Positions 229 to 852 are shown, counted from the stretch's first letter. The stretch: 25,051 nucleotides of DNA from Puniceicoccaceae bacterium (GCA_040830765.1 JBFOMH010000038.1:1-25051); one strand, 5' to 3'. Numbers and translations are program-made. The notes: generated from the letters alone by a model not told the origin.

Positions 229-312
229 TTACTGCTTCCGGCGGCCGTTCTGAACCCATTCGTCGAAGCCAAAGGCCAGTAGCAGTGTTGTTGTCAGGGC
301 GATGATAAACAT
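229..312 (-). CDS. Microprotein B1, 27 aa, MFIIALTTTLLLAFGFDEWVQNGRRKQ (hydrophobic N-terminus, basic tail)
   Basis: Translated by hand. RBS GGAGAACGAACC precedes the ATG. Its first 13 residues are identical to the paralog at 793-852 despite 7 synonymous codon differences. Confidence 0.8.
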   Translation of the reverse strand: MFIIALTTTLLLAFGFDEWVQNGRRKQ

Positions 313-343
313 GGTTCGTTCTCCAGTTTGAAAGTATCGTGGC

Positions 344-433
344 TTAGTAAGCCTGGTTGGCGTTGGCGGCTTCCTTCAGTTCGAAGGCACCGTAAGTGAG
401 AAGGCAGGCAGAGATGAAGATGATGAGTGTCAT
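344..433 (-). CDS. Microprotein A1, 29 aa, MTLIIFISACLLTYGAFELKEAANANQAY
   Basis: Translated by hand. Same length (90 nt) and ending (TAC TAA) as the paralog at 888-977. It starts about 35 nt downstream of a sigma54-type promoter. Confidence 0.8.
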   Translation of the reverse strand: MTLIIFISACLLTYGAFELKEAANANQAY

Positions 434-467
434 TGTTCGTTCTTTTGTTTAAATTCGCCTATAGTAA

Positions 468-483
468 TGCTGGTCGCGTGCCA
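468..483 (-). promoter_or_regulatory. Sigma54 (RpoN) -24/-12 promoter, cassette 1
   Basis: Minus strand TGGCACGCGACCAGCA: perfect TGGCACG, exact GG-N10-GC spacing, with CAGC in place of TTGC. Repeated in all three cassettes. Confidence 0.8.
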
Positions 484-513
484 ACTTTTTTAAAAACTAC
501 CTAAGTAGCTCTA

Positions 514-526
514 TATCAATTCTTTA
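514..526 (+). promoter_or_regulatory. IHF-like binding site
   Basis: TATCAATTCTTTA matches the E. coli consensus WATCAANNNNTTR exactly. It lies in the AT-rich tract between the sigma54 promoter and the upstream palindrome. Confidence 0.55.
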
Positions 527-590
527 TAAACTTTATATATTCATAAACTATTTTGTTTCCTTGGTGCTTTCGACGAAAGTGTCCGGACCG

Positions 591-619
591 GGGACAGGTA
601 TCGTCCCACTTTTGGGACA
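591..619. promoter_or_regulatory. Putative upstream activator sequence, cassette 1
   Basis: GGGACA (591-596), 5 nt, then CGTCCC-ACTTTT-GGGACA (602-619). The same motif and spacing recur in cassettes 2 and 3. Confidence 0.7.
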
Positions 620-708
620 CTCCGCAGTGGAGCCGAAAATGAGAACCAATCCGTAGGATGACCAAGGGTTGTCCTCTCGAAGGCCGCGTCCCGTTTTCAC
701 CAAATACT

Positions 709-742
709 AAAAAAGCGGAGTTCCCCACGAACTCCGCTTTTT
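709..742. terminator. Bidirectional intrinsic terminator closing cassette 2
   Basis: AAAAAGCGGAGTTC-CCCAC-GAACTCCGCTTTTT, a perfect stem with A/T runs on both sides. Confidence 0.85.
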
Positions 743-792
743 CCAAGCGATGACTTGTTGTTGATCTCAGCGATTAACGCTCCTGGTGGCTT

Positions 793-852
793 TTACAGCT
801 CACTCACCCCAAGTGCCAGGAGCAAGGTTGTTGTCAGTGCAATGATGAACAT
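793..852 (-). CDS. Microprotein B2, 19 aa as read, MFIIALTTTLLLALGVSEL (28 aa ending at 767 if one base is missing near 795)
   Basis: RBS GGAGAATTTATTC precedes the ATG. Paralog of 229-312 with only synonymous changes in codons 1-13. Confidence 0.7.
   Translation of the reverse strand: MFIIALTTTLLLALGVSEL

Follow-up and report, generated by a model that had tools for sequence, protein, structure and literature searches.

Tandem micropeptide genes in a genus of marine Verrucomicrobia: selection on the encoded peptides and a predicted role as sigma-54-driven membrane micropeptides

Introduction

Several small single-pass membrane proteins are induced by two-component systems, among them MgrB (with PhoQ/PhoP), SafA, PmrR, MgtS and AcrZ. 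Compact transcription units are also familiar from small RNA (sRNA) biology, where Qrr1-5 under LuxO and GlmY/GlmZ under GlrR/QseF are sigma-54-dependent, multi-copy sRNA genes, and from the type I toxins, which include Ibs, TisB, ShoB, Ldr and Hok. Genes of 19 to 29 codons are usually invisible to annotation. This article concerns a set of genes in that size range on a 25,051-nucleotide (nt) stretch of DNA from a Puniceicoccaceae bacterium (GCA_040830765.1 JBFOMH010000038.1:1-25051), which is referred to as the window throughout. Its minus strand carries two tandem cassettes in 150-1160 and a third cassette in 3479-3814, each with one or two short open reading frames (ORFs), designated A and B, and a fourth copy with an A ORF only is found on contig C23 of the same genome (G000).

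The ORF frames of this family are under purifying selection at the peptide level in nine genomes. On the evidence of sequence and genome context, it is probable that the cassettes encode inducible single-helix membrane peptides, driven by sigma-54 and belonging to one undescribed family of 19 to 29 residues. The family is unusually well defined for micropeptides, having a clear selection signal, a fixed layout of promoter and enhancer, and a hint of very high natural expression.

Selection on the Encoded Peptides

Cassette 1 contains ORF A1 (29 residues, MTLIIFISACLLTYGAFELKEAANANQAY, 344..433) and ORF B1 (27 residues, MFIIALTTTLLLAFGFDEWVQNGRRKQ, 229..312), and cassette 2 contains A2 (29 residues, MTLIIFTSACLLAYGLFELKEAIKPTESY, 888..977) and B2 (19 residues, MFIIALTTTLLLALGVSEL, 793..852), all on the minus strand. 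The third cassette has a single minus-strand ORF of the type called A-prime, A3 (25 residues, MTYIIIYTALLLTFAAIELKDALRA, 3554..3631), with no B after it. The exact sequence of A2 is present in the public protein collection, unnamed. A sequence-only reading of the window had argued for real translation from the way in which B1 and B2 differ, and over codons 1-13 the observation is correct. Comparison of 312..229 with 852..793 gives seven nucleotide differences in seven codons (F2, I4, A5, T9, L10, L11 and A13), all of them synonymous, with Nei-Gojobori counts of 7.0 synonymous (Sd) and 0 non-synonymous (Nd) differences. In a simulation that put seven substitutions at random into codons 2-13 of B1 and favoured transitions 2:1, the peptide stayed unchanged in only 44 of 200,000 trials. 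The synonymous-only pattern nevertheless applies to the codons that had been chosen; in codons 14-18 the non-synonymous differences outnumber the synonymous ones (about 4.5 against about 3.5), and the tails agree neither in sequence nor in length (27 vs 19 residues). The similar pattern described for A1 and A3 in codons 18-22 survives in part, with two of the three differing codons synonymous and the other changing Glu to Asp, and over 18 codons this pair has an Sd of 6 and an Nd of 11, a ratio of non-synonymous to synonymous substitution rates (dN/dS) of about 0.46.

A larger alignment gives a much clearer signal. The 33 homologous ORFs, drawn from nine genomes, align without gaps over codons 1-18, the sole indel being one extra residue in B1, past position 18, and the frame is open in all 33 (ATG start in 32, and TTG in one weak hit). 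Substitutions were counted in 14 independent nearest pairs, with each sequence used once, so that 28 of the 33 sequences contribute and five are left unpaired under a limit of 20 differences. Read in frame, these pairs have an Sd of 83.7 and an Nd of 58.3, equivalent to 0.44 differences per synonymous site (pS) and 0.10 per non-synonymous site (pN), and the pooled pN/pS of 0.23 is not near 1. Differences at codon positions 1, 2 and 3 number 38, 23 and 81, a third-position excess. The Sd of 2000 random placements averaged 41.5 and never exceeded 57.5, so that none came up to the observed value. The other frames behave differently, with pN/pS values of 1.09 and 1.81 (42 and 5 stops) in sense frames +1 and +2, and of 0.97, 0.54 and 1.56 (23, 16 and 73 stops) in antisense frames 0, 1 and 2.

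At the RNA level, RNAalifold found no conserved pairs across 15 transcripts (-30 to +100), and an Rfam search of the cassettes returned nothing down to E=1, only two tRNAs reaching gathering scores. Since selection is specific to one frame and neither a conserved RNA structure nor an Rfam family is seen, it is very unlikely that the cassettes specify nothing but an sRNA or are neutral repeats. This agrees with the earlier claim that purifying selection acts on the peptide rather than on the RNA, as does the lack of indels. A dual-function transcript, in which the RNA has a task beside coding, would be compatible with these tests.

A related explanation would keep the RNA as the main product, namely a multi-copy sigma-54-dependent sRNA of the Qrr or GlmY kind, in which the ORF is dual-function or incidental. 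The cassettes do have the corresponding parts (enhancer, sigma-54 promoter, transcript of 100-250 nt and terminator, in several paralogous copies), the depth of RNA contigs is greatest over the A-ORF part, and a separate sRNA-like element on contig C20, described below, uses the same enhancer. Against this stand the substitutions, which track the codon frame in pN/pS, in the third-position excess and in the 33 open frames, as well as the empty RNAalifold and Rfam results, and drift at synonymous sites would not suit a base-pairing seed. We consider this the least probable of the explanations weighed here.

A Putative Sigma-54 Promoter and a Distant Palindrome

Each cassette of the window reads, from 5' to 3', as a palindrome GTCCC-N6-GGGAC, an AT-rich spacer, the motif TGGCACG-N6-GCA, ORF A, ORF B where there is one, and an intrinsic terminator. 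The palindrome, a putative site for an enhancer-binding protein, lies at 603..618 in cassette 1, 135 nt upstream of the sigma-54-type promoter motif TGGCACGCGACCAGCA at 468..483, and the terminator, a GC-rich hairpin followed by a U-run, is at 151..195 (-27 kcal/mol, z -4.9). The corresponding elements of cassette 2 are at 1145..1160, 1010..1025 (TGGCACGCAGCCAGCA) and 703..743 (-33 kcal/mol), and those of cassette 3 at 3799..3814, 3665..3680 (TGGCACGCGTGAAGCA) and 3479..3519 (-18.9 kcal/mol, z -2.3), both terminators again being GC-rich hairpins with a U-run; all of these elements are on the minus strand. The spacer from palindrome to promoter motif is 134-135 nt in all four copies in the genome. 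About 30 nt separate the promoter motif from ORF A, and within them lie the conserved block CGAATTTAA and a purine run that resembles AAGGAA. ORF B, in cassettes 1 and 2, begins 31-35 nt past ORF A and has its own GGAG, which for B1, as second cistron, lies 9-12 nt before the ATG. Motifs of the GGAG/AGGA type are found before B starts, and AAGGAA-like ones before A starts. The block CGAATTTAA(A/C), seen at 445-460 and 987-1002 and in relatives, falls near the predicted transcription start of most A cassettes and is nearly invariant, while its flanking letters vary.

In the fourth A copy (G000:C23:26491-27197, on the minus strand; 1045-1751 of locus L002) the palindrome is perfect, TGTCCC-N6-GGGACA. 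This copy has neither a B ORF nor a clear terminator, a gene for a 110-residue exported protein follows about 100 nt downstream, and a tRNA-Leu(CAG) gene lies upstream in divergent orientation.

The layout is shared with relatives. Relative to the ATG, 19 of the 20 promoter-proximal ORFs have TGGCAYG-N6-GC near -60 and GTCCC-N6-GGGAC near -183, and none of the 13 B ORFs has this arrangement. The lone exception is an A-prime-type ORF, MTFIIIFSSMLLGFGALEVSGNLDS (G008:C157:173-250, locus L049), upstream of which neither palindrome nor sigma-54 motif is recognisable. Sigma-54 promoters are defined by GG at -24 and GC at -12, and the cassette motif fits this spacing, with GG and GC invariant and the spacer between them variable across relatives. 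The genome encodes rpoN (one Sigma54_DBD match) and six sigma-54 activators, judged by six strong Sigma54_activat matches. From this arrangement we infer that transcription starts at a sigma-54 promoter which requires an activator bound to the palindrome about 134 nt upstream.

A Peptide Family Confined to One Genus

The A, A-prime and B peptides align without gaps and share M1, I/L4, S/T8, L11, L12, G15, E18 and L/I/V19. By their sequences, A and B are paralogues of one family, B being a diverged paralogue. The 33 ORFs make up 13 A-B pairs and seven single A or A-prime ORFs, and each B lies directly behind an A (13 of 13), always as the second cistron.

A profile search of 37 genomes of the taxonomic family was positive in nine, all in the window's genus (the genome of the window itself and eight of 12 others), and in none of the 24 genomes from other genera. 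Of 401 genomes sampled from the order, eight were positive, again all in the genus, compared with none of the 389 genomes elsewhere. A related-locus search with an 8-row alignment returned six loci, five of which correspond to the same genus-level relatives; the sixth (L072) was rejected as spurious, being an 11-residue match in an alternative frame of a 692-residue gene. Six of the peptides were compared with Pfam, where none scored above the cut-off (the best being FTR1 at 11.8 bits against a cut-off of 25.3, and DUF6486 at 13.9 bits against 22.7), and with NCBIfam, which gave no matches. The public protein collection holds only some 29-codon forms, unnamed, and a full-text literature search, as far as its listings and the opening lines of abstracts go, contains nothing on these peptides or on sigma-54-driven micropeptides in Verrucomicrobia. 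The family is undescribed and is found only in one genus of marine Verrucomicrobia.

A tRNA-Arg(CCG) gene (1259..1333, plus strand), divergent from cassette 2, is a conserved neighbour of the array. It adjoins the array in the window's genome and in the loci of seven other genomes (G004, G005, G006, G007, G009, G011 and G012), which indicates, on the strength of gene order, that the array is a vertically inherited locus with lineage-specific duplications.

This inheritance bears on a further explanation, in which the peptides would be toxins of type I toxin-antitoxin systems, that is, small hydrophobic peptides that damage the membrane unless an antisense RNA holds back their translation. Small hydrophobic ORFs in tandem, intergenic, close to tRNA genes and mostly unannotated, are what such systems would look like. 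Toxin loci of this kind would nonetheless be at odds with a syntenic locus that is inherited vertically, and a scan of 1-4100 for one promoter type revealed no sigma-70-like promoter opposite the cassettes, on the plus strand, its only promoter-like hit being at 3763-3736 on the minus strand. The conserved non-coding blocks (enhancer, sigma-54 promoter and terminator) are all on the sense side, and the apparent abundance of the RNA in situ is very high, which is unexpected of an unchecked toxin. We therefore regard toxins of this type as quite improbable.

Predicted Placement in the Membrane

In the interpretation that we prefer, that of inducible membrane peptides, the three minus-strand transcription units of the window and the C23 copy would encode paralogous peptides of 19-29 residues, each predicted to form an uncharged hydrophobic helix of about 17 residues followed by Glu18 and a short polar tail. 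No charged residue occurs at positions 2-16 in any of the 33 peptides, position 17 is Asp in only two, and 32 carry Glu18. The peptides end in a short polar tail that is basic in several B forms (RRK, KRRK, HKRR). Basic segments of membrane proteins are located on the cytoplasmic side, according to the positive-inside rule, and the basic B tails would thus place the C-terminus towards the cytoplasm. Insertion into the cytoplasmic membrane in this orientation, together with the packing and the place in a regulon proposed below, is the least certain part of the proposal. Small or polar residues are conserved at positions 8, 9 and 15, which recur at seven-residue spacing, as would be expected of a helix-packing face. 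This face, S/T8-A9...G15, may pack against a membrane protein of the same regulon, or the peptides may pack together, A with B.

A Candidate Regulon Defined by the Palindrome

The exact palindrome occurs at eight places in the 4-Mb genome, and four of these are the cassettes. On contig C9, at 8276, it stands 124 nt before TTGGCACCGGCATTGCT and an operon for an HlyD-type adaptor, an ATP-binding cassette (ABC) ATPase and two MacB/FtsX-type permeases, and this pump operon directly follows genes for an NtrC-type response regulator and a histidine kinase. On C20, at 83793, it stands about 110 nt before CTGGCACGCGGATTGTT, which is followed by a short terminated transcript; here the palindrome lies at the end of an operon encoding a response regulator-activator, two unknown proteins, a kinase and a beta-propeller protein. 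The palindromes on C5 and C28 were set aside as chance occurrences, having GC-rich spacers and lying inside genes or in a terminator-like hairpin. A further palindrome on C36, with one mismatch, precedes a sigma-54 promoter and genes for an ammonium transporter and a P-II protein, and was assigned to ordinary nitrogen control instead of this regulon. What is left is a small candidate regulon that comprises the pump, the sRNA-like element and two two-component systems.

The transcript on C20 is of interest in its own right. The element (G000:C20:83399-83810; about 3400-3811 of locus L066, minus strand) lies behind GTCCC-N6-GGGAC and the sigma-54-like promoter CTGGCACGCGGATTGTT. Its 3' part is kept in eight of the 13 genomes of the genus and consists of a hairpin with compensatory changes, a conserved single-stranded segment GGAUCUAGUAA..AAGCCUGG and a terminator, with an alifold energy of -33.7. 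It has no Rfam match and no ORF of the peptide family, and its sequence makes it a candidate sigma-54-dependent sRNA.

Two activators could be considered for the palindrome. The two-component pair linked to the pump on C9 was downgraded as cognate regulator when its kinase was not found in G005 and G006, two genomes that have the peptides. The C20-type activator has an orthologue at 60-90% identity in all 13 genomes of the genus, with the palindrome at a distance of about 5 kb in G000, where it is downstream, and in G005 and G010. In G005 the palindromes are those of two peptide cassettes and of the C20-type locus, plus one GC-rich, chance-like site. Because the C20-type activator is present throughout the genus and has a palindrome near it in G005, whereas the C9 kinase is missing from peptide-bearing genomes, the NtrC-type response regulator encoded in the C20 two-component operon is the most likely activator, as far as gene content can indicate. 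Bound to the palindrome, an activator, likely of this type, would switch on the sigma-54 promoter. The peptides would then be an inducible output of a signal-responsive regulon which in most genomes may include the MacAB-like ABC efflux pump.

The same pump gives rise to another explanation, that the peptides are exported as leaderless bacteriocin-like, surfactant-like or signalling peptides, secreted by the co-regulated MacAB-like ABC pump. Phenol-soluble modulins provide a precedent, with a dedicated ABC exporter and direct control by a response regulator. The peptides have no signal peptide, are 19-29 residues long and are encoded by tandem paralogous genes; the palindrome and a sigma-54 promoter also precede the HlyD/ABC/MacB-FtsX operon in G000, and a palindrome follows the orthologous kinase in G004 and G010. 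Very deep RNA contigs in host-associated (mollusc-labelled) metatranscriptomes would suit exported peptides as well. However, the peptides are, over residues 2-17, uniformly uncharged and hydrophobic, neither amphipathic nor cationic, and no modification or processing genes lie beside the cassettes. Partnership with the pump is also imperfect, as G005 has cassettes and no palindrome-bearing pump operon and the pump-linked kinase was not found in G005 or G006. Export is therefore improbable in our view, though it is the first of the rival explanations that we would name. Since G005 lacks a palindrome at a pump operon, the pump is not an obligatory partner, and by its distribution it would be a frequent, not an obligatory, member of the regulon.

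A more specific form of the membrane-peptide interpretation can be entertained, although it is speculative and on balance we doubt it. One response regulator would drive the A/B micropeptides, the sRNA-like element and the MacAB-type pump, and the micropeptides, whose transcripts would rank with the most abundant in situ, would act as heteromeric, helix-packing modulators of the kinase or the pump, in feedback or gating. If true, this would be a sigma-54 signalling circuit not recognised before, in Verrucomicrobia that are marine and in part host-associated, with the cassettes as its main output.

Expression Hints from Metatranscriptomes

RNA contigs that cover the cassettes come from one study (runs X4, X6 and X9), labelled as mollusc metagenome and prepared with oligo-dT. 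Run X6 has a contig of 2072 nt without any difference to the window, and the DNA run X5 has one of 18,295 nt; identical contigs of this length show that the study sampled the organism itself or a strain nearly identical to it. Over 141-980 the word depth is 1.2e3-1.7e4 in X4 and 1.9e3-1.7e5 in X6, compared with 3-150 over the flanking genes in these two RNA runs, while the DNA run X5 of the same study is flat over the whole stretch at 10-13. The depth peaks over the A-ORF part. Word depth of contigs from a single study is a poor measure of level, and the contigs carry no strand information; the figures give a hint that the cassettes are transcribed abundantly.

Two further observations on these contigs were not used as evidence. 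No RNA contig spans 981-1120, though the DNA run covers it, and the orientation of adapters would suggest minus-strand RNA only if the library were stranded, which is not on record.

Weighing the Membrane-Peptide Interpretation

Several observations weigh against the interpretation of the cassettes as sigma-54-driven membrane peptides within a common regulon. The motif TGGCACG-N6-GCW is not rare, with 14 matches genome-wide, which by a rough estimate is of the order of chance, so that the promoter call rests on position and conservation. B2 has only 19 residues and is truncated, B forms elsewhere being longer (24-27 residues), and the tail of B1 is divergent. The C9-type kinase was not found (E<=1e-30) in G005 and G006, both of which have peptides, and occurs in G003 and G010, two genomes that yielded no peptide; G005, for its part, has peptide cassettes and no pump operon with a palindrome. 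Finally, adapter letters mark ends of RNA contigs at 435 and 978. These points lie 1-2 nt ahead of the start codons of A1 and A2, and not near 457 and 999, where the promoters predict the transcripts to begin. Processing to a nearly leaderless mRNA, or a library artefact, may be behind these ends.

Other Features of the Window

Immediately past the 3' end of tRNA-Arg(CCG), at 1336-1422, a 22-nt unit, CGACAAGCTCATGGCAGGCCAA, is repeated in tandem about four times. An ORF of 414 residues at 4100-5344 on the plus strand is built of repeats of about 135 nt (45 residues) with a recurring FSADGSVIVG-like motif, and has no Pfam match at E<=1e-6. On the minus strand, 5350-11432 holds an operon with genes for a MarR-type regulator, a membrane-fusion protein, an AcrB-type resistance-nodulation-division (RND) pump and an outer-membrane efflux protein, which is apparently unrelated to the cassettes.

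Comparison with Known Systems

The cassettes have features in common with each of three described groups of small genes. Like the type I toxins, they specify tiny hydrophobic peptides at duplicated intergenic loci; unlike them, they show no antisense partner in the scan for one promoter type, they have a promoter that would depend on an activator, and they keep a conserved position beside tRNA-Arg(CCG). With Qrr and GlmY/GlmZ they share the succession of enhancer, sigma-54 promoter, short transcript and terminator, in several copies per genome. The likeness may extend to the activator site, as the site of GlrR is TGTC-N10-GACA and the cassette palindrome reads (T/C)GTC-N10-GAC(A), which resembles it. 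In contrast to these sRNA genes, the cassette transcript has one or two ORFs under purifying selection, and no conserved RNA structure or Rfam match accompanies it.

The closest likeness in overall design would be to MgrB, SafA, PmrR, MgtS and AcrZ, which are likewise shorter than 50 residues, have one hydrophobic helix, are expressed from promoters controlled by a response regulator and were missed by annotation. Proteins of the MgrB and AcrZ group are proposed to pack their helix on a kinase, transporter or pump, and by analogy the cassette peptides may do the same. The cassette peptides differ from that group in having no sequence relation to it, as judged by the lack of Pfam or NCBIfam matches, in their sigma-54-type promoter with a distant enhancer, in the tandem arrangement of their paralogous genes, which includes A-B bicistrons, and in being much shorter, at 19-29 residues. 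The family can be tested directly in a cultivable genus, and, if the prediction is right, it would give the Verrucomicrobia a place among the sigma-54-controlled small membrane proteins, of which few are listed so far.

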